Both the position numbers and the translations under genes were made by a program. A stretch of DNA of 63,010 bases, filler included. It is 3 parts of 3 records of this genome, joined end to end, with 100 filler letters (N's around TTAATTAATTAA, not from the genome) between each part and the next. Parts side by side here need not be neighbours in the genome. Positions count along the whole stretch, not along the records: positions 49,052 to 63,010 come from SRR31156797_2787; 2 more parts are not named here. One strand, 5' to 3'. This document shows, one piece after another, positions 24,815 to 63,010 of the stretch. Every line of letters starts with the position of its first letter. The stretch's first letter is position 1. Below the pieces are notes generated by a model. That model ran no database searches. It was given only the letters and a program-made list of their open reading frames with translations, and was not told the DNA's origin.

Positions 24815-24914
24815 NNNNNNNNNNNNNNNNNNNNNNNNNNNNNNNNNNNNNNNNNNNNTTAATTAATTAANNNNNNNNNNNNNNNNNNNNNNNNNNNNNN
24901 NNNNNNNNNNNNNN
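24815..24914. other. Artificial contig-joining spacer
   Basis: 44 N, TTAATTAATTAA (stops in all six frames), 44 N; base composition changes abruptly across it. Confidence 0.98.
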
Positions 24915-48951: not shown

Positions 48952-49051
48952 NNNNNNNNNNNNNNNNNNNNNNNNNNNNNNNNNNNNNNNNNNNNTTAAT
49001 TAATTAANNNNNNNNNNNNNNNNNNNNNNNNNNNNNNNNNNNNNNNNNNNN
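48952..49051. other. Artificial contig-joining spacer
   Basis: Same N44-TTAATTAATTAA-N44 layout as the first spacer. Confidence 0.98.
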
Positions 49052-50103
49052 CCTTTCACATGTTTCTTTTTCTCTTTCAGTTTTGCCATCAGGGGATTGG
49101 AAAGATCCGACCAGATTTCACTGAAAGGACGATCCAGGATATTGCCGAAACTGTAGTGCCGCCAGAACTGGTCCGCATGAACCGCGCCGTCCCAACTGAC
49201 GCACCCGATGCCCAGGCCCGAACTGTTCCCTTCATTCATCCTGAGCAACTGTAATACATCTTCCGCCCTGGGGTCCTTTTCTTTCAGCATGCGGAGGTAC
49301 ACAAAAGGTCCGTCCGCATGGTTATCCACGGTGAGCACTTCTTTGGGCTTTCCCCGTTCATGAAGGTCACGGGTGCGGTCCATGATCAGGTCCACCACTT
49401 TTCGGGTCTGGGCATGCTCCAGGTCTTCTTCCACCATGTTTGATCCGCGCCCCGCATACACCAGGTGGTAAAAACAGATTCGCGGGATCTCCATTTCCTC
49501 CACAAGATCAAAGATGCGAGGAACCTCCACTGCATTCATTCGATTGATGGTAAACCGCAGCCCCACCTTAAGCCCTACCGCCTGGCAGTTGCGGATACCT
49601 TCCATGGCTGCTTTAAATGCTCCTTTTTTGCCGCGAAAGCGGTCGTTCACTTCTTCCATGCCGTCGAGGCTGACACCCACGTAGGAAAGCCCCACTTTTT
49701 TTAATTCTTGGGCCTTTTGGGGTGTGATGAGGGTACCGTTGGTGGAAATAACCGCGCGCATCCCTTTGGATACCGCATAGTTGGCCAGGTCCACCAGATC
49801 GGGCCGCATGAGCGGTTCGCCTCCTGAAAACAGGATTACCGGAGAACCGAAGTCCGCCAGATCATCGATGAGACGCAGTCCCTGCTTATGGGTGAGTTCC
49901 CCTATGGATTTTTCTTCAACGGCCCTGGCGTAGCAATGAACGCATTTGAGGTTACAGGCTTTGGTGATGTTCCACACCACCACGGGCCGCTTGTCTTGGG
50001 AAAACTGAAGGAGATGGGATGGGAGATCCTTGGAGCGCCTTCCGTACCTGAGCGCATCGGAGGGTTCCACCGTTCCGCAATAAAGTTTTGATATACCGAT
50101 CAT
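49052..50103 (-). CDS. ahbC: 12,18-didecarboxysiroheme deacetylase (alternative heme biosynthesis radical SAM), 3' end cut
   Basis: MIGISKLYCGTVEPSDALRYG...VVVWN, CNLKCVHC, SGGEP, FYHLVYAGRG and LTVDNHADG; ATG at 50103. Confidence 0.9.
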
Positions 50104-50139
50104 TTTTATATTGATTCCAATGGTTTTTATTGTCGCGCC

Positions 50140-50220
50140 GTGGGGGCAACCCCTTGCGGGTTGCCCTGTTTTGGGTGTTTGCAACGTATGATCAGGGCAG
50201 GCACGGGGGCCTGCCCCTAC
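50140..50220. repeat. Inverted pair of REP-like palindromes (REPIN-like)
   Basis: GTGG-GGGCAACCC-cttgc-GGGTTGCCC on the plus strand and GTAG-GGGCAGGC-ccccgt-GCCTGCCC on the minus strand, facing each other between pyk and ahbC. Confidence 0.75.
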
Positions 50221-50318
50221 AAAAAAATGCCATACACGTCAGACCATATCAAAGAACCCCCCCCAACTGCAAGTTTTTCGAAGATTGCGGTTTTTTTTCA
50301 TTCCAAAATCCGCAATGG

Positions 50319-51734
50319 TTATTCCTCTCCCACCACATGCAGCTTCATCATGTTGGTTTTCCCCTGTTTTTTGAGGGGGAATCCCGCAACGATGACGATA
50401 CGATCATTTTTTCGAACCAGCCTTTTTTTCCGAAGCTGTTCTTCCATCGCCTTGATCATGATGTCCGAATTGTCCATGAGGGGCAGCAAAAGAGCCTTTA
50501 CGCCCCAACTGAGGGCAAGGGACCGTTGAACGGCTTCGGTGGGTGTCAAGGCGATAATGGGAACCGACGGCCTGTATTTTGAAATGAGCCGGGCCGTGAA
50601 ACCGGACTGGGAAAAGGGCGTAATGGCGTTAAGCCCAAGGTTTTCGGCCGCCATGCAGGCGGCCTCTGAAATGGTGTCGGAAAAATTGAACGTTTTACGT
50701 GAGAAAGGCGCGGTTGCAGGAAAGTTCTTTTCCGTGACCCTGGCGATTCGCGCCATCATTTTTACGGACTCTACCGGGTATTTTCCAACGGATGTTTCTC
50801 CGCTCAGCATAATGGCATCGGTACCGTCCACAATGGCATTGGCAACGTCGGATGCCTCTGCGCGGGTGGGCAGGGGGTGTTCCGTCATGGACTCCAGCAT
50901 CTGGGTAGCGGTAATGACCAGCTTTCGGTTTTCGTTCGCCAGAGCGATCATTTTTTTCTGTGCCACCGGCACTTTCTCAGGTGAAAGCTCAACGCCCAGG
51001 TCTCCCCGGGCCACCATGATGCCCTCACATGCATCAAGGATTTCTTCCAGTTTGTCTAGTGCTTGCGGCTTTTCAATTTTGGCAATGACCGGAATGTTGA
51101 CGCCTTTTTTCTTGAGAATACGTTTCAGTATCTGAACATCCCGGGCGCTTCTGACAAAAGAGGCTGCCACAAAATCGATCCCCATACCCAGTCCGAAATC
51201 CAGATCTTTTTTATCTTTTTCCGTGACGGCGGGGATACCGGTTGTGATTCCGGGCAGATTGATCCCCTTGTGTTCGCCGATCACTCCCCCGGTAACCACT
51301 TGGCAGAAAAGATCCGTCTTATTTTTGTTTCGCACCTTTAATTCAATTAAACCATCGTCCATGAGGATCTTATCCCCCGGCTGAAGGTCCTTGGTAATAC
51401 CACCATAGGTTGTTGAAATGATACCGGGTTCGCCTTTTAAGGCACGGGTGGTGATGGTGAAGGGGTCATGGGCCTTTACCCGCAGGATGCCTCCTTTGAT
51501 CAGGCCCGTTCGGATCTTGGGGCCCTGGAGGTCCAGCATGATGGCAATGGGTCGTTTAAGGGACCTTGAGAGGGATTTTACCGAATCCGCGACTTTTTTA
51601 TGGTCTGTATGGGTGCCGTGTGAAAAATTGAGCCTGGCCACGTTCATGCCTGCCAGAATGAGTTCTTTCAGAACTTTTCGCGAACTGGTTGCAGGTCCAA
51701 TGGTGCAGACGATTTTCGTTCTGGGCGGGATCAT
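50319..51734 (-). CDS. pyk: Pyruvate kinase
   Basis: TKIVCTIGPA, RLNFSHG, DLQGPKIR, AKIE, MVARGDLGVE, ATQMLESM and MLSGET. Confidence 0.97.
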   Translation of the reverse strand: MIPPRTKIVCTIGPATSSRKVLKELILAGMNVARLNFSHGTHTDHKKVADSVKSLSRSLKRPIAIMLDLQGPKIRTGLIKGGILRVKAHDPFTITTRALKGEPGIISTTYGGITKDLQPGDKILMDDGLIELKVRNKNKTDLFCQVVTGGVIGEHKGINLPGITTGIPAVTEKDKKDLDFGLGMGIDFVAASFVRSARDVQILKRILKKKGVNIPVIAKIEKPQALDKLEEILDACEGIMVARGDLGVELSPEKVPVAQKKMIALANENRKLVITATQMLESMTEHPLPTRAEASDVANAIVDGTDAIMLSGETSVGKYPVESVKMMARIARVTEKNFPATAPFSRKTFNFSDTISEAACMAAENLGLNAITPFSQSGFTARLISKYRPSVPIIALTPTEAVQRSLALSWGVKALLLPLMDNSDIMIKAMEEQLRKKRLVRKNDRIVIVAGFPLKKQGKTNMMKLHVVGEE

Positions 51735-51918
51735 CCTAAATCTCCTTTTAGATCATGAACATCTGCTCTGCCGTAAAAAATATCCGCAGTGCCCACATAG
51801 GTCAAGAACAAACAGGAGGCTTCATGGTTTTTGTTTTTTTGCTTGATGCACGAATCACTATGCTCTAAATTAATCGATTATTTTCGTTAAGTCAAAACAG
51901 TTGTGGGGAGGGAGGCGT

Positions 51919-53181
51919 ATGAAATATCGTATGAAATGGATTTTGGGTGTCCTGTTGGTGGTCAGTGTTTTTGTCATTCCGTTGTTGATGGCATCCGTTG
52001 TTTCGGCGGACAGCCTTTCGGAGGCTATTTCACAGGGGATCAGCGATGGGAAAATTACCAAAGATGCGGAACCCGGTTTCTTGGGGATTCCCGGCGCACC
52101 AAAAGTTAATTTTATACTCGGCTTTCTATGGGCCATATGGGTGGGTTGGATTTTTTCCACAGTGGGCGCATTCGGCGGTATCATGGCCGGTGTGGGACAT
52201 ATCACCATATTCGGCTTGGGGGATTATGCCAAGGGTTTTGGTAAGGGTTATCCCATGAACAAGCTGTTGACCGATTCCATCCGCGTGTCCAACCAGTGGC
52301 TTGTGGGCCTGAGCGGTTTGATTTCCAGTACTAATTATTACCGAATGGGTCGTTTGGTGGCGCCTTTGGGCATGTGCCTTGCCATTGGCGGGGTCGGGGG
52401 GTCCTGGCTTATTCCGGATCTGACGGCCGGTAAAATCAGTTTGAAGTCTTATATCGGCTACTTCGGCATCGCAGTGCTTGCACTGGGTGTAATCCTCTTC
52501 CGTGAAACGACCAAAGCCGGCCAGGCCAAGCGTAAGAAAGCCAAGGAGGCGGCCTCCGCCTTTGAAAAAGAGGCCAAGAAGGGTGGGGACAGCCAGCAGG
52601 GGGTCAAGGTGCTTCAGGGCAGCTGGACCATGATGTTCGTGGCGCTGGGAGTGGTGGTGGCCAGTGCACTCTGGGCCAACCTGGCCGGCGGCGCCAAATG
52701 GGTGGCCTACATCCTGGCCCTGGTGGGCTGGGCATTGACATTTTTCGTGGGAACCATCCGATTTACCTTTTACGGGGTGGAATTTAAATTCAAAGCCTTT
52801 ATCCCCATGCTGGGCGGTATTTTCATTGCTGCGCTGGCATCGTTTCTAGGGGTCGGCGGCGGGTTTCTGTATGTCCCCTTTCTCACATCGGTGGCGGGTT
52901 TGCCCATGTTCCTGGTGGCCGGTACCAGCGGCCTGGTGGTTCTGGTGGGCATGATCGTCTCCATCTTCAGCTATATGGTGGGAAAAGGTGTTCCGGTCCA
53001 GTGGGGTTTTATCGGTGCGGAACTGGTGGGTATTTTTATCGGCAGCATGATCGGACCCCGTACCTCCAAATATATTCCGGATATCTGGCTCAAACGGCTT
53101 TTTGTGGTGCTCGCTTTTTACGTGGGCCTCCGGTACATTACCAAAGGTTTCTTGGGCTACAGCATCGTTCCTCCCTTCTGA
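51919..53181 (+). CDS. TauE/SafE-family sulfite exporter-like membrane protein
   Basis: GWIFSTVGAFGG, LGVGGGFLYVP and VAGTS; GGAGG RBS before the ATG at 51919. Confidence 0.88.
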   Translation: MKYRMKWILGVLLVVSVFVIPLLMASVVSADSLSEAISQGISDGKITKDAEPGFLGIPGAPKVNFILGFLWAIWVGWIFSTVGAFGGIMAGVGHITIFGLGDYAKGFGKGYPMNKLLTDSIRVSNQWLVGLSGLISSTNYYRMGRLVAPLGMCLAIGGVGGSWLIPDLTAGKISLKSYIGYFGIAVLALGVILFRETTKAGQAKRKKAKEAASAFEKEAKKGGDSQQGVKVLQGSWTMMFVALGVVVASALWANLAGGAKWVAYILALVGWALTFFVGTIRFTFYGVEFKFKAFIPMLGGIFIAALASFLGVGGGFLYVPFLTSVAGLPMFLVAGTSGLVVLVGMIVSIFSYMVGKGVPVQWGFIGAELVGIFIGSMIGPRTSKYIPDIWLKRLFVVLAFYVGLRYITKGFLGYSIVPPF

Positions 53182-53200
53182 TGCACTGATCCGTTCCATT

Positions 53201-53229
53201 GCGCCCCGGCCCGGCCGGGGCGCCCTTTT
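53201..53229 (+). terminator. GC-rich hairpin with short T tail
   Basis: GCGCCCCGGC-ccg-GCCGGGGCGC followed by CCTTTT. Confidence 0.55.
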
Positions 53230-53241
53230 CGGCCTTGTCAG

Positions 53242-53748
53242 ATGGATTTTGTAACCGGTCTCATAAACGGCATCGATCAAGTGCTCATCACCCCCTACCG
53301 GTGGCCTGATAGCCCCATGGCAGGCTGGTGGCTGGGCACATCCATTTTGGCTCTGTGGTCCACACTTCTGGGCAGATTGACCATGGCCCTGGTGATGCGT
53401 GTGAATCTGCGTCACGTGCGTGATGGACTGGAAGAAACCGGCCTGCGGCACACCCAGAGTATGAATGCCCTTAAGGCGGGGGACAAAGATGCCTATAAAG
53501 CCATCAATAAACTGGCCAACGAAGCCTATGGTAAAACCTTCTTTCTGCAGGTGGCCATGGCGGCGGCAACCCTCTGGCCCATCCCCCTGGCCCTCGGCTG
53601 GTTACAATTACGCTTTTCAGAGGTCATGTTTCCCCTTCCGCTGATGAGTAACAGTGTGGGTTACGCGTTTGTCTTTATTCCTCTGTATATCCTGGTGCGG
53701 ATTCTGGTGGCAAAGGTGGTGAACCGGATGTCACGTCATATGCATTGA
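53242..53748 (+). CDS. Hypothetical membrane protein following the TauE-family gene
   Basis: Three hydrophobic segments and a GDK.AYKA.NK.ANEA.GK.FF block. Confidence 0.8.
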   Translation: MDFVTGLINGIDQVLITPYRWPDSPMAGWWLGTSILALWSTLLGRLTMALVMRVNLRHVRDGLEETGLRHTQSMNALKAGDKDAYKAINKLANEAYGKTFFLQVAMAAATLWPIPLALGWLQLRFSEVMFPLPLMSNSVGYAFVFIPLYILVRILVAKVVNRMSRHMH

Positions 53749-53852
53749 CGAAATAATCAAATTACTTTATCGTGTTATCAACTTCCGGAAATTCGCTCCC
53801 TTGACTGTTTTTCTGTAAATCGTTGTTTTGACCGTGAAAGGGGAAGCATCGA

Positions 53853-54935
53853 ATGAGCCCTGCGCTTGTGTCCCGCAGAATTGAAGTTGAAAATGTCGAG
53901 CAGGTGGTGGAAACCTTTTATCAAAAGGGTTGGACAGACGGCCTTCCCGTGGTTCCGCCCACGGAAGAAAAGGTGCTGGCATTCCTTAGCGCTGCAGGGT
54001 TACCCCCCGATGAGATCCTGGGGGCCATTCCGGAGCGGAACCGGGTTTTCACCGCTGAAAAAGTGGCCGTCAACGCCGTCATGGCCGGGTGTCTCCCTGA
54101 ATATTTTCCGGTTGTTGCAGCTGCCGTTAGGGGAATATCCCGACCGGAATTCGGTCTTCACGGTGTTTGTGCCAGCACTGCGGGGTCGGGTATCCTGATG
54201 GTGGTCAACGGTCCCGTGGCGGAGGCCTGCGGTTTGAACAGCGGCCAGAACCTCATGGGGCCCGGAAATCGTGCCAATGCCACCATCGGGAGGGCATTGA
54301 GGCTCGTCTTATACAATCTGGCGGGAAGGGAGTTCGACCGGTCAACCCTGGGGCATCCCGGGAAATATAGCTATTGTATCAGTGAGGATGAAACCGGTTC
54401 CTGGAAACCCCTCCATGTGATGAGGGGATTTCAAAAGGAGATGAGTGCCGTTACCCTTTTTGCAGCTGAAGGGCCCAACCAGGTGCAGAATCACGTGGCC
54501 CTGAAACCGGAAAATATTTTGAACACCATTTCCGATCGCATGCGGGCCCTGGGAAGCTTCAATATGGGCGGGGACTGCGAATGTGCGGTGATCATCTGCC
54601 CGGAACATTATGATGCTTTGAGTAAAGGTGGATGGACAAAGGAGGGGGTTCGGGACTTTCTGTACGAGAACGCCTGCCGGTCTTTGGCGGACCTGAAAAG
54701 GGGAGGGCTCAACGAATCGTCCCTTGAACCGGAGGATGAAGAAGAAATGGTCCGGGCCGTTTCATCACCTGATCATATTCTGCTGATCATGGCCGGAGGG
54801 GAGGCCGGCCGATTTTCGGCTTATCTGCCCGGATGGTTCAGCCGTCACATGTCAAAGGCGGTGACCGAGCCCATCGGGGTGACCTGTGTCGGGGGAACAT
54901 GAGCCGTCACCGGGGTTCCGTTGGAATCCCTTTAG
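53853..54935 (+). CDS. UGSC-associated protein (DGLPVVPPT type), probably extended through UGA to a C-terminal CVGGTU tail (360 aa; 349 aa if UGA is a stop)
   Basis: GWTDGLPVVPPT, AVMAGC.PEY and GNRANATIGRA motifs; TGA at 54900-54902 follows CVGGT and precedes a SECIS-like hairpin, AVTGVPLESL and TAG at 54933-54935. Confidence 0.75.
54912..54930 (+). promoter_or_regulatory. Putative bacterial SECIS element 1
   Basis: GGGGTTCC-GTT-GGAATCCC: 8-bp stem with one G-U, G-first loop, 17 nt between the UGA and the loop. Confidence 0.65.
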
Positions 54936-54956
54936 TTGAGAAGGAAGGAAATTATC

Positions 54957-55481
54957 ATGACCTTTACCGTGCTGGATCCTACGAATGAGCCCGTTAAAAC
55001 AACCTTTAGAAAGGCCCCACGGCCGGAAACCCTGAAAGGGCTCAGGCTCGGACTCATTGATAATGGAAAGAAGAATTCCGATTATCTTGTCAAGAAAATC
55101 GCTGAAAGATTGCGGACCCTTTACGGCCTCAGTGGAGACATTCTTGTGAAAAAGCCTTCCCCTTCACATGCCATCCCTGGGGATATGGCTCAAGCCCTTG
55201 TTGGAAAGGTCGATGTGGTGGTCGCCGGTATCGGGGATTGAGGTTCTTGCAGCTCGGGCAGTGTGCTCGATGGCATCGTCATGGAAAAACTGGGTGTCCC
55301 CGCGTCCGTGGTCTGCACGGAACCTTTTGTGAGTTCAGGGAAAGCCATGGCTGTGGCCCACGGTTTCCCCGACTATCCCTTTGCCGTCATGCCCCATCCC
55401 ATCAATGCCACAACCTATGAAATGTTGGATTCGTGGGTGGAAGATGCCCTTCCTGAAATTGCACGCTTGCTGCTTGCATGA
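54957..55481 (+). CDS. UGSC-family selenoprotein (174 aa, Sec at codon 95)
   Basis: Track ORFs 54936..55241 and 55263..55481 share a frame and are split by one TGA (55239-55241), giving AGIGD-U-GSCSSGSVLDG; AAGGAAGGA RBS before the ATG at 54957. Confidence 0.92.
55248..55275 (+). promoter_or_regulatory. Putative bacterial SECIS element 2
   Basis: TCGGGCA-GTG-TGCTCGA (55254-55270): 7-bp stem, G-first loop 19 nt after the UGA, with lower TGC/GCA pairing. Confidence 0.8.
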
Positions 55482-55556
55482 AGAGTCCGTTTCTTTCTGC
55501 AGGAACCTTTGAAATGCGACTGATTTTGTTATTGATCATTATGGAGAAGAGTTATT

Positions 55557-56615
55557 ATGTTTGAACAAGGTGTTATCAGGCCGCCCAGTGAAGCCAACAG
55601 CCTTCTGGTCCGTGTGACGAGAAACTGTCCGTGGAACCGCTGCCTGTTCTGTCCCGCCTATAAGGGAACGACTTTTTCCAGGCGGTCCGTTGCGGAAATA
55701 AAAAAAGATATCGATGAAATGGTGCAATATTATGGACCTAATGGTTCACAATTCACCACGGCGTTTTTCCAGGATGCCGATTCCATGATCCTTCCCACTG
55801 AAGAGCTTCTGGAGATCTTAAAATACCTCGGGAAGGCCTTTCCATCCTTGACCCGGATCACTTCCTATGCCCGCGCCAAAAGCCTTAAGCGGAAAAGCGT
55901 TAAATCCCTGAAAACGCTTAAAGCGGCAGGATTAACGCGGATCCATACGGGACTTGAAAGCGGGTCCGTGAAGGTTTTGAAATTGATTCAAAAAGGAGAG
56001 AGCCCCGGGGAAATGATTGAAGGGGGGCAGCGGGTCATGGCGGCCGGCATAGAGCTTTCTGAATATATCATGCCGGGTGTGGGCGGCAGGGAATTGAGCC
56101 GTGAGAATGCCCTCGGGACGGCGGATGTCTTAAACCGCATCCGCCCGGATTTTATCCGGGTTCGCACATTTGCCCTGCCGCCTGCTTCCCCCATGGAGGC
56201 CATGGCCCGGGAAGGTCGTTTTTCTCCCATGAATGAACTGGAAATCGTCGCTGAAATCCGGGATTTGATGCGCCATTTGGAGGAAATGCCGTCACATTTC
56301 CGTTGCGCGGATTTCAGCCTGAACCTGCTGATGCATGTGGATGGGTATCTGGACCGGGATCGACCCCGCATGCTTGAAGATCTGGATTCATTCCTGTCCC
56401 TTTCCGAATTGGACCAAAAGAGTTATGTTCTGCTTCAGCGATCCGGTCATTTTGGTGTGCATCCATCGGAGATGCTCAAGCATCAGGATCTAATGCGTGA
56501 GCTTCACAACAAGATTGAAGAACTGGATGGTGGTAACGGAGGCGGTTTTGACGGGTATATTCGTGCCATGATGGCCGGCCAGTTGCCTCGCCCTCAGACC
56601 GGTACTTGGACATAA
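55557..56615 (+). CDS. Radical SAM protein
   Basis: IRPPSEA.S, CPWNRCLFC (CX4CX2C variant), FFQDAD, GLESG and SEYIMPG.GG. Confidence 0.9.
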   Translation: MFEQGVIRPPSEANSLLVRVTRNCPWNRCLFCPAYKGTTFSRRSVAEIKKDIDEMVQYYGPNGSQFTTAFFQDADSMILPTEELLEILKYLGKAFPSLTRITSYARAKSLKRKSVKSLKTLKAAGLTRIHTGLESGSVKVLKLIQKGESPGEMIEGGQRVMAAGIELSEYIMPGVGGRELSRENALGTADVLNRIRPDFIRVRTFALPPASPMEAMAREGRFSPMNELEIVAEIRDLMRHLEEMPSHFRCADFSLNLLMHVDGYLDRDRPRMLEDLDSFLSLSELDQKSYVLLQRSGHFGVHPSEMLKHQDLMRELHNKIEELDGGNGGGFDGYIRAMMAGQLPRPQTGTWT

Positions 56616-56624
56616 GGAGTGTTT

Positions 56625-57365
56625 ATGGATGTTCACAAGGAAAGAATTGCAGTATTTATTGATGCGGATAATGCACCGGCAAAAAAAATTGATATGATTT
56701 TGTCTGAACTGGCAAAATATGGTGTTGTCAGTATCCGGAAGGCTTATGGAAACTGGAAGAAACCTTCCATTAAAGGCTGGGAGGATGTCCTTCATGAATA
56801 TTCCATTCAGCCGGTTCAGCAGTTTGACATTGTTAAAGGGAAGAATGCCACGGATATGGCCATGACCATTGATGTGATGGACATTCTTTATACGAAGAAT
56901 ATCGACGCCTTCTGTATTGTATCGTCGGATAGTGATTTTACGCCTCTGGTTCTAAGGGTCCTATCAGAGGGCAAATCGGTCATCGGTTTTGGTGAGCGTA
57001 AGGCACCGTCACCATTTGTCAACGCTTGTTCCCGTTTTCTGTATCTGGATGAACCCGCAAAACCTGATACCAATGGTGTGCAAGGGGTGAAACAGATGGG
57101 TAAAGCGCTTAAATCGGATACCAAACTCATGAATCTCTTGCGAAACGCCATCGATTCGGAGCAGGATGATGACGGCTGGGCCTATCTGGGACGTATCGGC
57201 GCCCATATTTCCAATCAGGCCTCCTTTGACTCCAGAAATTACGGTTACAAAAAGCTGGGTGATCTCATACGGGCAATCGATATTTTTGAAACAAAACTGG
57301 TGGGTGGCGGCCAGTTATACGTCAGGGACAAGCGAAGGGTGAAACCGACCGCCAAAACGGAATGA
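56625..57365 (+). CDS. NYN-domain protein with C-terminal OST-HTH/LOTUS domain
   Basis: IDADN, GKNATD, SSDSDF and FDSRNYGYKKL; AAGGAG RBS before the ATG at 56625. Confidence 0.92.
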   Translation: MDVHKERIAVFIDADNAPAKKIDMILSELAKYGVVSIRKAYGNWKKPSIKGWEDVLHEYSIQPVQQFDIVKGKNATDMAMTIDVMDILYTKNIDAFCIVSSDSDFTPLVLRVLSEGKSVIGFGERKAPSPFVNACSRFLYLDEPAKPDTNGVQGVKQMGKALKSDTKLMNLLRNAIDSEQDDDGWAYLGRIGAHISNQASFDSRNYGYKKLGDLIRAIDIFETKLVGGGQLYVRDKRRVKPTAKTE

Positions 57366-57383
57366 TCCTGACGGCATCGATAT

Positions 57384-58259
57384 ATGGCAGGAGTTGTATT
57401 GAATATGAAGTGTACTGAAGAAAATATGTTGCACCAGCTGAAACCGTACGAAAATCAATTACCCGATTACCATATGCACACCGCTTTGTGCAGGCACGCC
57501 AAAGGAACGGTTGCCGACTACCGGAGGGCGGCCGGTGCCCTCGGAATTCCTGAAATCTGCTTTGTGGATCACGCCCCAAATCCGGATGGGTACGATCCGA
57601 AACACCGTATGAACCTCAATGAGTTTTCCGACTATCAGGAGATGGTGGGTGCCGAGATGGACCATCAGGCGCCACATGTCCTCTTCGGCATAGAGGCGGA
57701 TTATTACAGGGGGTGTGAGACGTTCCTGGAAAAATGGCTGGAGACCCAGGATTTTGATCTTGTGCTCGGCTCGGTGCATTTTATTGAGGACTGGGGGTTT
57801 GATAACCCGGATGTGAAGCAGGTCTGGAATTCGGTGGATGTTACGGATACCTGGGCAACCTATTTTAAACTGGTAATGAAATTGGTGGATACCCGGCTTT
57901 TTGATGTGGTCAGCCACCTGGATATCCCCAAAAAATTCGGGCACCGTCCATCCCAAAAAGATCTTAAGGAGATGGTGCAGCCGGTCCTGGACCGGGTGGC
58001 GGCAGCAGGGATGGGCATGGAGTTAAATACTTCGGGGCTTCGTAAACCGGTTGGGGAAATTTATCCATCGGTCTTGATCGTAACACTAGCCCGGGAAAGG
58101 GATATCCCCATCTGTTTCGGTTCGGATGCGCACAATCCGCAAGAAGTGGGCAAAGATTTTCCCGCTGCCCTTAAGCTGGCCCGAGATGCGGGGTATACAG
58201 ACTATTTCAGGATCAAGAAACGGAAAAAAACCCTGATAACGCTTCCGGAAGTGCTTTAA
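57384..58259 (+). CDS. PHP-family histidinol-phosphatase (HisJ/HisK type); start uncertain
   Basis: DYHMHT.LC.HA.G, DHAP, GIE.D, GSVH, HLD..K, ELNTSG and GSDAH. Confidence 0.9.
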   Translation: MAGVVLNMKCTEENMLHQLKPYENQLPDYHMHTALCRHAKGTVADYRRAAGALGIPEICFVDHAPNPDGYDPKHRMNLNEFSDYQEMVGAEMDHQAPHVLFGIEADYYRGCETFLEKWLETQDFDLVLGSVHFIEDWGFDNPDVKQVWNSVDVTDTWATYFKLVMKLVDTRLFDVVSHLDIPKKFGHRPSQKDLKEMVQPVLDRVAAAGMGMELNTSGLRKPVGEIYPSVLIVTLARERDIPICFGSDAHNPQEVGKDFPAALKLARDAGYTDYFRIKKRKKTLITLPEVL

Positions 58260-58400
58260 AAACGACCGCATTACCATTGAGTTGCTCATTTACCATAGAA
58301 CCATTATTCTCGTTTATAGGGGCACCCATGGCGAGGTTTAAAGATACATCACTCGTCAGGGGGTGAGATAGGCTTTAAACTTCATAATGATGATGAGGGG

Positions 58401-58892
58401 GTGGCGATGGATCGGAAAGCATTTTGGCGCGTGTTGTCTCTGTCCGTATTTACGGTGTTGGTTTTTGCCGGATGGCAAATAACGATGGTTGAAGCTAATC
58501 AGGCTGAAGGAATGTCACCCGGTGGTACTGGAGGAAGTAAGGTAGGTTCAAGAAATCTCAATCTGATCCTGCTCAATAACCAGGGGTATAAAAAGAAACG
58601 AAAGGGGCCGGTGGAATTCACCCATAAAAAGCATGTGTACCAATACAGACTGTTCTGCTGGGATTGTCATCACGACTACAAAGATGGACAGGATGTCTGG
58701 GTGCCGTGGGGAAAGACCCAGCGATGCCGTGAATGCCACAATCCAAAGGATAAAAAACACAATAAGATCATGCTCCAGAAAGCGTTTCATTATCAATGCA
58801 AAGGGTGTCACAAGAAGCTGGCGAAACAAAAGAAGAAGACCGGCGCCTATCGAAAATGCGGGGGGTGCCATCTGAAGAAAGAGGCCAAGTAG
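58401..58892 (+). CDS. Tetraheme class III cytochrome c (c3 family), very basic
   Basis: Signal or anchor segment, VEFTHKKH, and CWDCH, CRECH, CKGCH and CGGCH. Confidence 0.92.
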   Translation: MAMDRKAFWRVLSLSVFTVLVFAGWQITMVEANQAEGMSPGGTGGSKVGSRNLNLILLNNQGYKKKRKGPVEFTHKKHVYQYRLFCWDCHHDYKDGQDVWVPWGKTQRCRECHNPKDKKHNKIMLQKAFHYQCKGCHKKLAKQKKKTGAYRKCGGCHLKKEAK

Positions 58893-59229
58893 ACTGGTTT
58901 CGGGTTATATGAACAATGATTCCAGATATATGCTAAGGAAGTGCCGTGCCACAAACAGAAACGGATTTAAAACCATGTTTTTATTTGCTGAGTCAGAGGG
59001 TTCGTATGACAACTTTTGCTTTGGTCCTGTATGGGAAACTTATGGGAAAAGATGCTGGTTGCAAACGGGATAATTTTTGTTTTTCAAGAGAAATTCGGTA
59101 GTACAGGCCATTTCAGAGCCCGATTTTTTTCAGACCAGACACCATATATTGTGGCCGTCTAATTATCGACTAAATTTCAGATATATAGTTAGTACAGGTT
59201 CACCAAGACCCAATGTGCGTTTGGATATT

Positions 59230-59612
59230 CAAACTATCTGTAAGGGCACCGAGATGGATCGAACAAGGCGCTATGGAAGGTAGATCCGTACTCACGAAAA
59301 AGCCCGCATTCTGAGTCTGATACATGAGCCTTTCATCGAGATTTCCGGTGGGGTGGACAACGCGCATGTGAGTGGTCGAGGCAACCGGTTGCATGTAGAC
59401 ATCGACACCGGCCGTTTTCAAAGGTTCAAGAATAAACGCGTCCTTTTCAGCCATCCTTGTAACAAAACGGCAATTTTTTTTTCAGTCCGGCAACAGGCGG
59501 CCAATGCCCCGAAAAACGGTGCGCCTCCTGGTGCGCGGCGGGCGGATCCTTCCCTCGCCTCTATTTCATCGATGGTCACATGGCCCATAAATACCAGATC
59601 GTACCGATTCAT
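59230..59612 (-). pseudogene. PfkB/ribokinase-family kinase remnant (frameshifted and truncated)
   Basis: GHVTID...PGGA...A N-terminus; the frame shifts near 59465 into TRMAEKD...HLGALTD and similarity ends long before the ATP-binding motifs. Confidence 0.7.
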
Positions 59613-59742
59613 TCCGGCTCCTTTTTCTCAACTCCGGCCAAACAACCGGGATTAAAAATTCTTATTATTACAAAACCCAACACAAAAAGACAGCCTTTGG
59701 TTTATCGGAATTTATGAATTTAAATACCAGCAATAAAGGGTT

Positions 59743-59952
59743 TTATTTAGCAAGCACCACGCCCCCTATGACCATGGCGACGCCTAGAACTCGCAGGGGC
59801 GTAATGGGCTGTATTTGGTATCCCAGGCAACCAAAATGGTCAAAGAGTATTGAGGTGATCATCTGGCCGGCGACCACCAGAGAAAACAGGGTTGTCGCTC
59901 CCAACCTGGGGGCAGCGATTATGGCGGATGTTACGAAAACGGCGCCCACAAT
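59743..59952 (-). pseudogene. C-terminal fragment of a DMT/YdcZ-type transporter
   Basis: GAVFV.....PRLGA.......GQ...S...DHFG..G....P....R..G; no N-terminal half is present upstream. Confidence 0.7.
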
Positions 59953-60044
59953 CTTCTTCCAAAGACCGTGGAGTTGATAACCCTTTACATTGAGCGGTAT
60001 CGTCTGACACCAAGACCCATTTACCGGAACTGCCTATTCATCTA

Positions 60045-60177
60045 TTATGTTGCGAAATACTCTCAGGAAAAGCTATTGTATGGGTTAACACGCTGATATT
60101 GCAAAGACTTCATCAGCTCCTGAGCAAATCCCGGAAATGTCAATATATTTAGACAGTTAGGGAAACTCGCAACATAA
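60045..60177. repeat. 133-bp segment bounded by a perfect 11-bp inverted repeat
   Basis: TTATGTTGCGA (60045-60055) and TCGCAACATAA (60167-60177). Confidence 0.55.
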
Positions 60178-60275
60178 GGGTCACACCTATTTATTTATTA
60201 TTTTTATCATTGTGCCCCCTTTTTTTGTCGTTTTTTTGACGATGGTGCAACCTAATGGTATCATCCGATTCACGG

Positions 60276-60313
60276 TTGACATGACCAACATGATGTCCTA
60301 GAATAAGGTCATG
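60276..60313 (+). promoter_or_regulatory. Sigma70 promoter and probable operator of the vapBC-type pair
   Basis: TTGACA (60276-60281), 17 nt, TAGAAT (60299-60304); inverted repeat CATGACC (60280-60286) and GGTCATG (60307-60313). Confidence 0.78.
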
Positions 60314-60565
60314 ATAAGTTCAAATATAAATGAAATCAAAACGCATTTTTCGAGTTTCCTTGCAAAAGTCAGCAATGGAGAAACCGTGGTCGTCTGTAAA
60401 CGGAATGTACCGATTGCTGAAATAAAACCGATTGCGGCACTCCCAAACAAAAAGCGTCCAATTGGTTTGGCCGGAAAAGAATATCCGGACTTTGAAATAG
60501 GCGACGCTTTTTTTGAGCCTCTCCCGGAGGATATTCTTGCTGCCTTTAGTGGCGAAGAGGCATGA
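60311..60565 (+). CDS. Phd/YefM-family antitoxin
   Basis: NINEIKTHFS..L..V..GE.VVV...N.PIAEI.P; overlaps the toxin start (ATGA). Confidence 0.9.
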   Translation: MISSNINEIKTHFSSFLAKVSNGETVVVCKRNVPIAEIKPIAALPNKKRPIGLAGKEYPDFEIGDAFFEPLPEDILAAFSGEEA

Positions 60566-60948
60566 AACTTTTACTGGATACGTGCACGTTTCTCTGGTTG
60601 ATCCAGGGTAGTGAAACGCTGTCGTCTAATGCAATTGAAGCGTTTACCGATCCGAAAAATGAAGTTTATCTAAGTTCTGTTTCCGCCTGGGAAATCAATG
60701 TTAAATTTGGCTTGGGCAAATTGCCTCTTCCACTTTCACCTGATAAATTTATTCCCAAAGAGCGAAAAAGACATATGATTACCCCGCTGGATTTGTCAGA
60801 GCAGGATACATCTCACCTTCTTAAGCTGCCCAACCCCCACAAAGATCCTTTTGACCGTATGCTTGTATGTCAGGCCATTGAGCATTCTCTGACAATCCTT
60901 ACCCCTGATCCACTTGTTACACAGTACCCAATTCGTTCTATCTGGTAG
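60562..60948 (+). CDS. vapC: PIN-domain VapC toxin
   Basis: LLLDT..FLW, S.VS.WEI, HKDPFDRMLV.QA and LT.D. Confidence 0.93.
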   Translation: MKLLLDTCTFLWLIQGSETLSSNAIEAFTDPKNEVYLSSVSAWEINVKFGLGKLPLPLSPDKFIPKERKRHMITPLDLSEQDTSHLLKLPNPHKDPFDRMLVCQAIEHSLTILTPDPLVTQYPIRSIW

Positions 60949-61039
60949 TGGGCCGTCATGGCGTCGCCCATTAAAGGGCTAGTCAAATGAAAACACGCTC
61001 CACCGGCCCCCAATCGCAACCCTGGATCATCGAGACGGC

Positions 61040-61309
61040 TCAAAATTGATCGTAATGTCCAGCAATTGCAAAAAAGTAAATGTCGTTGTCATCGAATTGA
61101 TAAGCGACGCGGTCTTTTTGGCTCAACCTGCGTGACCAAAAACCGGAAAGGTTATGGCCAAGGGCTTCGGGTTTTCCCGTTCCGATTGCCGGGTCCCCCC
61201 GAAGCATCTCTTTTAAAATTGAAGAAAGGGCTTTATGCAAACGCTTGTCTTTGGTTCTGAATTTTTCGTAAGTCGTCCACGTGCTGTCCTCAAACACCAA
61301 GGATCTCAT
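61040..61309 (-). CDS. yoeB: Txe/YoeB-family toxin
   Basis: GTGKPEAL.HNLSGFWSRR and C-terminal GHY; ATG at 61309. Confidence 0.88.
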   Translation of the reverse strand: MRSLVFEDSTWTTYEKFRTKDKRLHKALSSILKEMLRGDPAIGTGKPEALGHNLSGFWSRRLSQKDRVAYQFDDNDIYFFAIAGHYDQF

Positions 61310-61481
61310 GTATTTCTCCATCCGTTGGTGTGTAATCGGAACGTTCCCAATCTTCCGCACTCATGACAATAAAATCTCCCCCACTACGGCGGGTTACTTT
61401 GAGCGGCACATGCGCACTGGCCGCCTGTTCGACAAAATTCTTCATCTTTGAGCGAAACTGGTTTACGCTGACGGTTTCCAT
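61290..61481 (-). CDS. yefM: YefM-family antitoxin, unusually short (63 aa)
   Basis: SVNQFR..MK.FVE......P.KVTRR.G.DFIVMSAEDW; GGAGG RBS; overlaps the yoeB start. Confidence 0.75.
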   Translation of the reverse strand: METVSVNQFRSKMKNFVEQAASAHVPLKVTRRSGGDFIVMSAEDWERSDYTPTDGEIHEILGV

Positions 61482-61729
61482 GGGCACCTCCCAATACGTA
61501 CTGCTTTACGGTACATGCTGACGCACCCAAACAGATTAATCAAATAGAGAAAAAGGAATGATGTTAATGATTGTCTAAATATGATTTAAACTTAAATCTC
61601 ATTCACCATTAAAAATGATCGCCGGGAGCTGGGTGCGTTTCGGAAAATAATTGATTGATCCGGGTCGGGAAGAGAGAAAAAAATAAAAAGTGAATATCCA
61701 ATGTCGAACAAATAATTTCCAATAATCAG

Positions 61730-61754
61730 GTAGGGGCGAAAAAACTTTCGCCCT
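61730..61754 (+). repeat. Single REP-like palindrome
   Basis: GTAG-GGGCGAAA-aaac-TTTCGCCC. Confidence 0.65.
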
Positions 61755-61949
61755 GAGATATGCCTTGTTCCATATTCCGCGGTTCAAGATTTTTCAAATC
61801 GCCACCCCAACATCTTGTGGCCAAAAGACATTTTATTCTGGTTGCAGTGTGCTTATTTCTTCTTTGCATGTGCTATACAAACAATTCGATTTAATCCCGC
61901 CTGGGTGAGATATTTCGAATTTTCCTAAATTGGCATTCCATCGAGACTT

Positions 61950-63010
61950 TCATACCAATTTCCTCAAATCCGTGTGCATTTTTTTAAAAACCCATTTTTC
62001 GAGTATTTCGAAAACAAGCTCTCTTTTGATCGGTTTTGTGATATAATCATCCATACCGGCTTCAAGACACTTTTCCCTGTCTCCTTTCATGGCATGGGCA
62101 GTCATGGCAATGATCGGTATGGTGTCAAATCCGTTCTCCCTGATGGCCCTGGTTGCTTCCAGTCCGTCCATCCCCGGCATCTGAACATCCATAAATATTA
62201 AGTCGAAATCCTTCGGTGATGCCATGTATCTTAAAACCGCCTCTTTGCCGTTATCGGCAACCTTCACCTGATAACCGGCTTTGGTGAGCATTATCTTTGC
62301 CAGCTTTTGATTGACAGGGTTATCCTCGGCCAAAAGTATACAAATTGAGTGTTTTGCCTCTTCCAGAAGGGAATATTGGGTGATGATCCTTTTTCTCATG
62401 CCTTCAGTGCATTGATGTTTGGCCTTAACCTCCCCGATCAATCTCCCCACCATTTGAAATAGCTTCTCCCTTTGAATCGGTTTGCTCAAAAACCCGTCGA
62501 AGCCGACCTCTTTACACAATTTGGCATCACGTTCCATGAGGGAAGAAAGGGCAATCATGGGGAGATCTCTAATGGGCGTTTTATGGTCGCGAACCCTTTT
62601 TGCCACCTCATACCCATTTATAACCGGCATTTGGATATCACTGATGCACAGGTCGAAGGGGTTTCCGGTTTCCAGTGTCTCGTTGAGAATGGGCACAACA
62701 TCTTCACCATTTCTTGCGGCAACCACTTCCATGCCCGCGGATACTAAAATATGAGTCAATATCTCCAAATTCCTCAGATTATCATCAACAATAAGAATCT
62801 TCCTGCCTCGGAGAGTCAGAGGCTTCAGTTTTCCCGAAGACTCCAACTTTTCTGTTTTTCCGAGCCATGAGGTAAAATGAAAAATACTACCCGTATGAAC
62901 CTCGCTTTCAACCCAAATGTCACCGTCCATGAGATGGGATATCTGCTTACATATGGGGAGGCCCAAACCGGTACCACCATACTTTCGGGTCATTGAACCG
63001 TCAGCCTGCC
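61950..63010 (-). CDS. Hybrid sensor histidine kinase, 3' part (end of HATPase plus two receiver domains)
   Basis: TRKYGGTGLGL G2 box; receivers LIVDDN...DIQMP...KP and LLAEDN...MDVQMP...KP. Confidence 0.93.
   Translation of the reverse strand, partial: QADGSMTRKYGGTGLGLPICKQISHLMDGDIWVESEVHTGSIFHFTSWLGKTEKLESSGKLKPLTLRGRKILIVDDNLRNLEILTHILVSAGMEVVAARNGEDVVPILNETLETGNPFDLCISDIQMPVINGYEVAKRVRDHKTPIRDLPMIALSSLMERDAKLCKEVGFDGFLSKPIQREKLFQMVGRLIGEVKAKHQCTEGMRKRIITQYSLLEEAKHSICILLAEDNPVNQKLAKIMLTKAGYQVKVADNGKEAVLRYMASPKDFDLIFMDVQMPGMDGLEATRAIRENGFDTIPIIAMTAHAMKGDREKCLEAGMDDYITKPIKRELVFEILEKWVFKKMHTDLRKLV

Follow-up and report, generated by a model that had tools for sequence, protein, structure and literature searches.

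A predicted selenoprotein family with a C-terminal Cys-x4-Sec tail, encoded next to UGSC family selenoproteins

Gene A and its downstream region

We analyzed a 63,010-nt stretch of DNA (the window, meaning here the whole stretch) that contains a protein-coding gene, designated gene A, with an in-frame TGA codon near its 3' end. Comparative evidence suggests that this TGA is decoded as selenocysteine (Sec) and that the resulting C-terminal tail, in which Cys and Sec are separated by four residues (C-x4-U), may function as a redox arm together with the product of the next gene, a selenoprotein of the UGSC family. The features of the locus and the basis of each assignment are listed below (SECIS, Sec insertion sequence; ORF, open reading frame).

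53853..54935, + strand: gene A, 360 aa when the TGA is read as Sec (ORF, translation)
54885..54887, + strand: TGT codon, Cys345, proposed partner of Sec350 in C-x4-U (sequence, translation)
54900..54902, + strand: in-frame TGA, proposed Sec350 (aligns with Cys in CxxxxC homologs; TGT in homolog L090)
54903..54935, + strand: ten in-frame codons, AVTGVPLESL (54903-54932), and TAG (54933-54935) (conserved frame, peptide)
54912..54930, + strand: SECIS-like hairpin GGGGTTCCGTTGGAATCCC, 19 nt, 8 pairs, GTT loop at 54920-54922 (folding, conservation)
54957..55481, + strand: UGSC family selenoprotein gene, in-frame TGA (U95) at 55239-55241 (NF041046, translation)
55254..55270, + strand: hairpin 12 nt downstream of the UGSC TGA, 7 pairs, GTG loop (internal positive control for SECIS shape)

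Translated with table 11, gene A extends from the ATG at 53853 to the TGA (53853-54902) and encodes 349 aa. The residues preceding the TGA are T-C-V-G-G-T, and the order of CVGGT-TGA, ten open codons, TAG and hairpin given by the initial annotation of this DNA agrees with the letters of the window. One of its coordinates does not: position 54882 is the start of the ACC codon for T344, and the TGT lies at 54885; the remainder is as stated. The hairpin is located within the extension, as had been claimed, and on its 3' side come TTT and, close behind, a purine-rich ribosome-binding site and the start codon of the next gene (ATG, 54957). When Sec lies this close to the C-terminus, gene prediction readily takes the TGA for the stop. 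The same point had been made in the initial annotation, and it is borne out by the public entries of close homologs that we examined, which are 349-aa "hypothetical proteins", one being named "M15 family metallopeptidase".

The next gene scores 127.4 bits against NF041046, "UGSC family (seleno)protein" (cut-off 125), and its TGA lies in the motif G-I-G-D-U-G-S-C (U95-x-x-C98). With table 11 this gene is split into two ORFs, 54936-55241 and 55263-55481. The hairpin that follows its TGA is near in size and spacing to that of gene A.

Conservation of the TGA, the codons beyond it and the hairpin

A metagenome scan yielded eight loci (L119-L126) whose proteins are 74-90% identical to that of gene A; with the window, these are referred to as the nine close copies. 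The frame is conserved beyond the TGA in all nine: each has C-x-G-G-[T/A], TGA, an in-frame AVTG[V/I]PLE and then a second stop, so that the downstream codons, on whose conservation the initial annotation had made its reading depend, are indeed kept. Codons upstream of the TGA show free synonymous differences. A rival explanation takes the TGA as an ordinary stop codon. The hairpin would then act as RNA between the two genes, whether as a weak terminator or attenuator, as a stabilizer, or as a device for translational coupling of the UGSC gene, and the peptide encoded past the TGA would be a by-product of its conservation. The conserved part of the extension does overlap the hairpin to a large extent, which suits that explanation; the two codons that separate the hairpin from the TGA, however, differ among the nine copies at third positions only.

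The C-termini of family members were classified at 172 loci from genomes and metagenomes, which provided the comparison of CxGGxC with CxGGx-TGA endings called for by the initial annotation.

Stop directly after Cys-x4: 13 loci, TGA in 13/13
Stop directly after Cys-x2: 7 loci, TGA in 7/7
C-x4-C tail: 25 loci, 23 of them C-x-x-G-x-C
C-x-x-C tail: 6 loci
Other or no tail: 121 loci

The stop was thus TGA at all 20 loci with a Cys-x4 or Cys-x2 ending (TGA-tail loci). Stop codons at the remaining 152 loci (C-x4-C, C-x-x-C and other) drift, with TGA in 74, TAA in 41 and TAG in 37, and so do the stops that come second at the 20 TGA-tail loci (TAG in 9, TAA in 7, TGA in 4). The first stop therefore appears to be fixed as TGA, which is difficult to reconcile with ordinary termination. 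Six of the seven Cys-x2 loci have G-W codons and then TAA or TAG after the TGA; here the Gly codon (with synonymous variation), the Trp codon and the second stop all lie between the TGA and the hairpin, again at odds with a peptide that is conserved only as part of an RNA structure.

A Cys at the position of the TGA was the other expectation of the initial annotation. It was found in the 25 loci with a C-x4-C tail, which aligns with C345 and U350; in BLASTP, CVGGT(U)AV of the window protein is placed over CSSGTCSL of a C-x4-C form. An equivalent of Cys345 is present in 13/13 Cys-x4-TGA loci. A further subgroup with C-x-x-C tails (L015, L018, L077, L084, L148, L188) ends in G-V-C-[I/L]-D-C and forms the all-Cys equivalent of the C-x2-TGA-GW group; the UGSC partners of its members are all TGA forms.

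Phylogenetic trees were built without the tail columns, and two loci (L088 and L098) were dropped as too fragmentary. All 19 TGA-tail rows in the tree form, together with the Cys form L090, one clade of 20 (Shimodaira-Hasegawa-like approximate likelihood ratio test support, 100). L090 (69% identity) is nested within the Cys-x4 subclade with support of 99. It has TGT at the position of the window's TGA, the codons that follow are homologous in DNA and are translated as ALPGLQLEPFKLT, and its hairpin has decayed, one pair being lost. Since the same codons are necessarily translated in L090, this locus offers the clearest single evidence that the ten codons in the window are coding, and, like the Cys in the 25 homologs, it speaks against an ordinary stop.

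The hairpin after the gene A TGA has a perfect stem, which begins 9 nt past the TGA. Its sequence is identical in eight of the nine close copies. In the ninth, L125, three pairs are altered and all are still paired, one through changes on both sides (G-C to A-U) and two through a change on one side, and the peptide is altered with them (V to I and S to F); no pair is broken in any of the nine. Retention of pairs despite a changed peptide indicates that the stem is under selection as RNA. Hairpins of at least 6 bp beginning 6-16 nt past the stop were found at 18 of the 20 TGA-tail loci versus 6 of the 152 other family stops, and two of these six, L127 and the UGSC TGA of the fusion L099, are likely Sec sites themselves. 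The hairpin of the C-x2-TGA-GW group is located past the TAA or TAG and has one pair changed on both sides, and the loops of the sister-group hairpins contain GT. Bacterial SECIS elements follow a rule of spacing and loop sequence; the gene A structure is a conserved stem-loop near the TGA whose apical loop contains G/U. Because it is conserved in the close copies, and hairpins are enriched after the stops of TGA-tail loci, it is more than a chance structure.

Taken together, comparison of sequences argues for recoding of this TGA, through the Cys forms and the conserved hairpin and codons, and TGA 54900-54902 is very probably decoded as Sec. The Sec reading put forward in the initial annotation is therefore well supported.

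Several observations weigh against it. The hairpin is thermodynamically unremarkable: the 56-nt stretch that includes it has a folding energy of -12.2 kcal/mol (z = 0.55), which 144 of 200 shuffled sequences equal or surpass. A terminator consensus scan flags 54912-54930 as terminator-like, with the tail TTTAGTTGAG. A search of 54700-55500 against Rfam at E<=10 gave two chance matches and no SECIS family; as it gave no SECIS match even at the accepted UGSC site, we regard this result as uninformative. The TGA-tail members, about 57-90% identical, all belong to one clade, and the 20/20 TGA count is thus one retained ancestral state and not 20 independent events. In L127, which belongs to the same subgroup, the TGA is kept and Gly replaces the Cys. 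Among the 120 nearest database homologs, 32 end in T-G-[F/G]-x, without Cys, exactly at the position expected for the TGA. Finally, selA, selB, selC and selD are only implied in this organism, by its UGSC gene.

Unexceptional folding energy, the flagged terminator and the 349-aa calls in public entries are in favor of termination at the TGA. The initial annotation had also cautioned that the hairpin could be a weak terminator, and the scan agrees with it to that extent; the T-rich tail, however, is present in none of the eight close relatives, which argues against an intrinsic terminator, and we rejected this candidate. Weighed against the invariant TGA, the Cys homologs and the translated codons of L090, the ordinary-stop explanation is very unlikely.

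As to the database records, 71 of the 120 nearest homologs end exactly at the would-be TGA position (Cys-x4 or Cys-x2), so many of them are probably too short. The T-G-[F/G]-x enders (P0063-P0103 and others), many of them from named Bacillaceae isolates, may represent additional Sec forms that lack a partner Cys, or their ends may be true ones.

The adjacent UGSC gene needs Sec decoding and thereby implies that the window organism is capable of it. No tRNA was found within the window. We searched for Sec machinery in five Thermodesulfobacteriota genomes with gene A, comprising four TGA forms and a Cys form. tRNA-Sec was detected in all five (69.5-75.1 bits, cut-off 47), and selB was above the cut-off in four, the fifth being a fragmented assembly. 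Another genome, G001, which accounts for 39% of sampled words, was considered as a relative and rejected: it lacks gene A and has no DNA match to window positions 49100-63010, and gene A occurs in 0 of 401 genomes of its phylum. As G001 is not a relative of the gene A region, its tRNA-Sec match was not used.

If Sec insertion were inefficient and varied with selenium supply, gene A could also give rise to both products, a 349-residue tail-less form when selenium is scarce and a 360-residue form with the tail when it is plentiful. In bacterial Sec decoding, read-through of UGA competes with termination. Tail-less relatives are common (the 121 loci above), so the shorter product may still fold and act. 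On the other hand, the 349-residue form would retain Cys345 and lose its partner, and conditions that favor this form would also cut the UGSC gene to half its length. We consider regulated production of two forms exceedingly improbable.

The gene A family and its UGSC partner

Gene A protein matched no Pfam and no NCBIfam family at E<=1, and a profile of its family matched no PDB sequence at E<=10. The family is nevertheless large. A word-indexed search found homologs in at least 7987 clusters at E<=0.001, and an exhaustive search at 50% identity gave 8049 representatives, with E<=1e-30 for 2525. Of 401 genomes sampled from the phylum of G402, 49 encode members, often more than one each. Some representatives of about 710 aa (P0244, P0247, P0248) contain two copies of the gene A domain each. 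Apart from one cluster at 0.88 in which 16% of members have UGSC, a protein atlas returned clusters without names or with automatically assigned ones.

An AlphaFold2 model built with 74 sequences had a mean predicted local distance difference test (pLDDT) score of 90.7 and a predicted template modeling score of 0.90. Residues 344-360 were below 50, and the tail is thus predicted to be flexible. Cys80 is present in 74/74 sequences and Cys175 in 70/74. Foldseek gave no match in PDB at E<=0.001 (best E of 2.4e-3, template modeling score of 0.27). The best VIA-align matches had Z of 6.1-6.3 over about 90 residues, with a chorismate-mutase/Rid-like beta-alpha-beta arrangement, and class I fumarate hydratase had Z of 5.8-5.9 over 168-175 residues; both are below the noise guide of 7-8. 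No ribonucleotide reductase (RNR), the fold of which is a ten-stranded alpha/beta barrel, was among the fold matches listed by Foldseek and VIA-align, a comparison that the initial annotation had proposed. Given also the lack of Pfam and NCBIfam matches, the gene A protein is by sequence not an RNR, and its core is probably not that of one.

UGSC is the sole neighbor conserved past the closest copies, and at most loci it immediately follows gene A. A U/C-G-S/T-C motif occurs within 1.2 kb downstream in most loci, including 102 of the 121 loci of the "other" class, all with TGA. UGSC proteins are about 175 aa long. The model of the UGSC protein (pLDDT of 88) shows a flavodoxin-like three-layer fold in which the Sec/Cys sits where a strand ends and a helix begins. 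UGSC is a known selenoprotein, among the most abundant in ocean metagenomes and without known function (PMC2398784). That Global Ocean Sampling paper describes a UGSC fusion to a domain called "Unknown_1", and the portions of its text drawn on here make no mention of Sec in "Unknown_1". This domain may correspond to the gene A family.

Fusions also connect the two families, and this link, like the gene pair, comes from sequence comparison. Fourteen longer family representatives were scanned, of which nine carry another Pfam domain and five carry none. The additional domains are UGSC in seven (one also with FeThRed_B), AhpC/TSA in one and Pyr_redox_2 in one. Gene A is followed by UGSC, cut at the UGSC TGA, in 2/14; a full Cys-type UGSC precedes gene A in 3/14; and the C-terminal half of UGSC precedes gene A in 2/14, one of which ends in a ferredoxin-thioredoxin-reductase catalytic domain. 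AhpC/TSA is N-terminal to gene A in 1/14, and a pyridine-nucleotide disulfide oxidoreductase domain is C-terminal to it in 1/14. UGSC is thus found fused to the gene A family in either order. Representatives of the fusions with Pyr_redox_2, AhpC/TSA, FeThRed_B and UGSC include P0347 (Pyr_redox_2), P0262, P0328, P0274 and P0246. Fusion to such redox domains ties gene A to thiol-disulfide electron transfer. In L099, from a Thermodesulfobacteriota genome, gene A and UGSC share one frame, whose first stop is the UGSC TGA; an 8-pair hairpin with a GTG loop lies 11 nt downstream of it.

Neighbors apart from UGSC vary among loci. The natural gene A-UGSC pair of L068 is all-Cys, and in an Alcaligenaceae strain the Cys pair is found beside CoA-transferase and TctC genes. 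Upstream of gene A, the window encodes a TauE/SafE-like membrane protein and a 168-aa membrane protein (51901-53748), and downstream a radical SAM protein and an NYN/LOTUS protein (55557-57365). These genes are common to the closest copies only: TauE and the 168-aa protein are shared with L122, the radical SAM protein with L119 and L121, and the NYN protein with L119.

Elsewhere in the window, positions 631-48803 carry a long cluster for sugar-nucleotide, nonulosonic-acid and glycan synthesis (Polysacc_synt_2, DegT, NeuB, cytidylyltransferase, WbqC, glycosyltransferases, LpxB, Kdo transferase, heptosyltransferase), together with a 1321-aa Laminin_G_3/fn3 protein. Four 44-base runs of N (176 in all) are located at 24815-24914 and 48952-49051, and one of them cuts the 3' end of a radical SAM ORF at 49000-50184 on the minus strand.

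A possible redox arm and its relation to known systems

The explanation that we favor overall, and consider likely, is a Sec-decoded TGA that provides a flexible C-x4-U redox arm working with UGSC. SelB would be recruited by the hairpin at 54912-54930, and the TGA would be read as Sec to give a 360-residue protein. Its last 17 or so residues would form a flexible tail with Cys345 and Sec350, which most likely cycles between the selenenylsulfide and the selenol/thiol. This mobile arm would receive reducing equivalents from the UGSC selenoprotein encoded downstream (U95-x-x-C98) and pass electrons to a core catalytic center around the invariant Cys80 and the near-invariant Cys175. That the tail acts as a redox arm, which cysteines form the active site and which way the electrons flow are inferred. 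For the specific claim that the tail is an electron-shuttling arm that works with UGSC, the chances are somewhat better than even.

Other features of the family are less favorable to an arm. The resolving Cys is not universal, as seen in L127 and in the T-G-[F/G]-x ends, and most members (121/172) are tail-less. The core has no recognizable fold, which makes its catalytic center a matter of conjecture, and the arm role, the binding of UGSC and the active-site cysteines are all predictions.

These features would be explained if Sec were inserted and the tail were not a shuttle, i.e., if C-x4-U served as a catalytic nucleophile, carrier or ligand and UGSC as an acceptor or co-catalyst. Such a motif might hold a metal, a persulfide/selenide or a covalent substrate fragment, like selenoprotein A in glycine reductase. 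Sec kept without a partner Cys, as in L127, and the 32 nearest homologs that end without Cys fit this role. So do the roughly 70% of sampled members with no Cys tail, whose core can evidently work without an arm, and the UGSC model, which is flavodoxin-like and not a thioredoxin fold. Against it stand the matched dithiol and selenol-thiol tails (CxxxxC, CxxxxU, CxxC and CxxU), which are the usual signature of a redox pair, and the fusions with the thiol-disulfide redox domains AhpC/TSA, Pyr_redox_2 and FeThRed_B. The core, moreover, retains an invariant Cys80 of its own. A non-shuttle role of the tail is, in our view, unlikely.

The redox-arm explanation can also be extended to a two-selenoprotein relay. 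Sec350 would attack Sec95 of UGSC, giving a transient intermolecular diselenide (or Se-S) intermediate, and the relay would feed a new-fold reductase superfamily of >8000 sequence clusters, its many paralogs acting on different small substrates, with thioredoxin-reductase-like or ferredoxin-thioredoxin-reductase-like modules as donors. We offer this scheme tentatively and are inclined to doubt it.

The initial annotation had compared the tail with the swinging arm of RNR. The alpha subunit of E. coli RNR has 761 residues, with C754 and C759 and 24 disordered tail residues, and its tail pair re-reduces the active-site pair and is in turn reduced by thioredoxin, as described in the parts of bioRxiv 10.1101/2021.07.31.454598 used here. 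Like class Ia RNR alpha, the Cys forms of gene A end in C-x-x-G-x-C plus two residues within a disordered tail, so that tail layout, disorder and redox fusions are consistent with the comparison, if not the identity of the core. In addition to its different core, gene A differs from RNR in that Sec takes the position of the second Cys, and UGSC, as a dedicated partner, that of the general reductant thioredoxin. The likeness to RNR concerns how the tail may work and not family membership.

Mammalian thioredoxin reductase has a flexible C-terminal selenenylsulfide that moves electrons between a buried redox center and a protein partner. The tail proposed for gene A would resemble it as a flexible C-terminal Cys/Sec electron carrier. 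In thioredoxin reductase, however, Cys and Sec are adjacent and the protein is a pyridine-nucleotide disulfide flavoprotein, whereas gene A has a spacing of four residues (two in the sister group) and no such domain. One gene A relative, P0347, is fused to Pyr_redox_2, as may be compared with thioredoxin reductase.

Several bacterial families, i.e., UXX-star, KCU-star and the radical SAM proteins with CUAEP/CCAEP tails, also have Sec near the C-terminus (PMC13188914 Table 1; NF040546). Gene A shares with them a Sec located a few residues from the end; it has no match to their NCBIfam models and differs in family, motif (C-x4-U) and partner. It is also a different protein from UGSC (NF041046 / PF24696), which co-occurs with or is fused to its family. 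A 2026 review tabulates 119 prokaryotic selenoprotein families, each with a domain identifier (PMC13188914 Table 1). Gene A did not match the Pfam or NCBIfam models of these families, a scan that leaves outside a few families with cd or PTHR identifiers alone. The term "CxxxxU" was not found in the literature searched, and no paper on UGSC, judged by title, dealt with a Sec-containing neighbor. On this basis, gene A likely represents a selenoprotein family that is new but of a known type, with Sec in a redox motif close to the C-terminus.

The gene A family would be missed as a selenoprotein family by current annotation, which calls its members at 349 aa and has no Pfam or NCBIfam model for them. 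Its recognition provides UGSC with a constant partner, with a plausible role as the reductant of the gene A family, and with candidate upstream donors suggested by the fusions. As a large family with interchangeable CxxC, CxxU, CxxxxC and CxxxxU tails, it would be a natural system in which to study the contribution of selenium to a redox arm.

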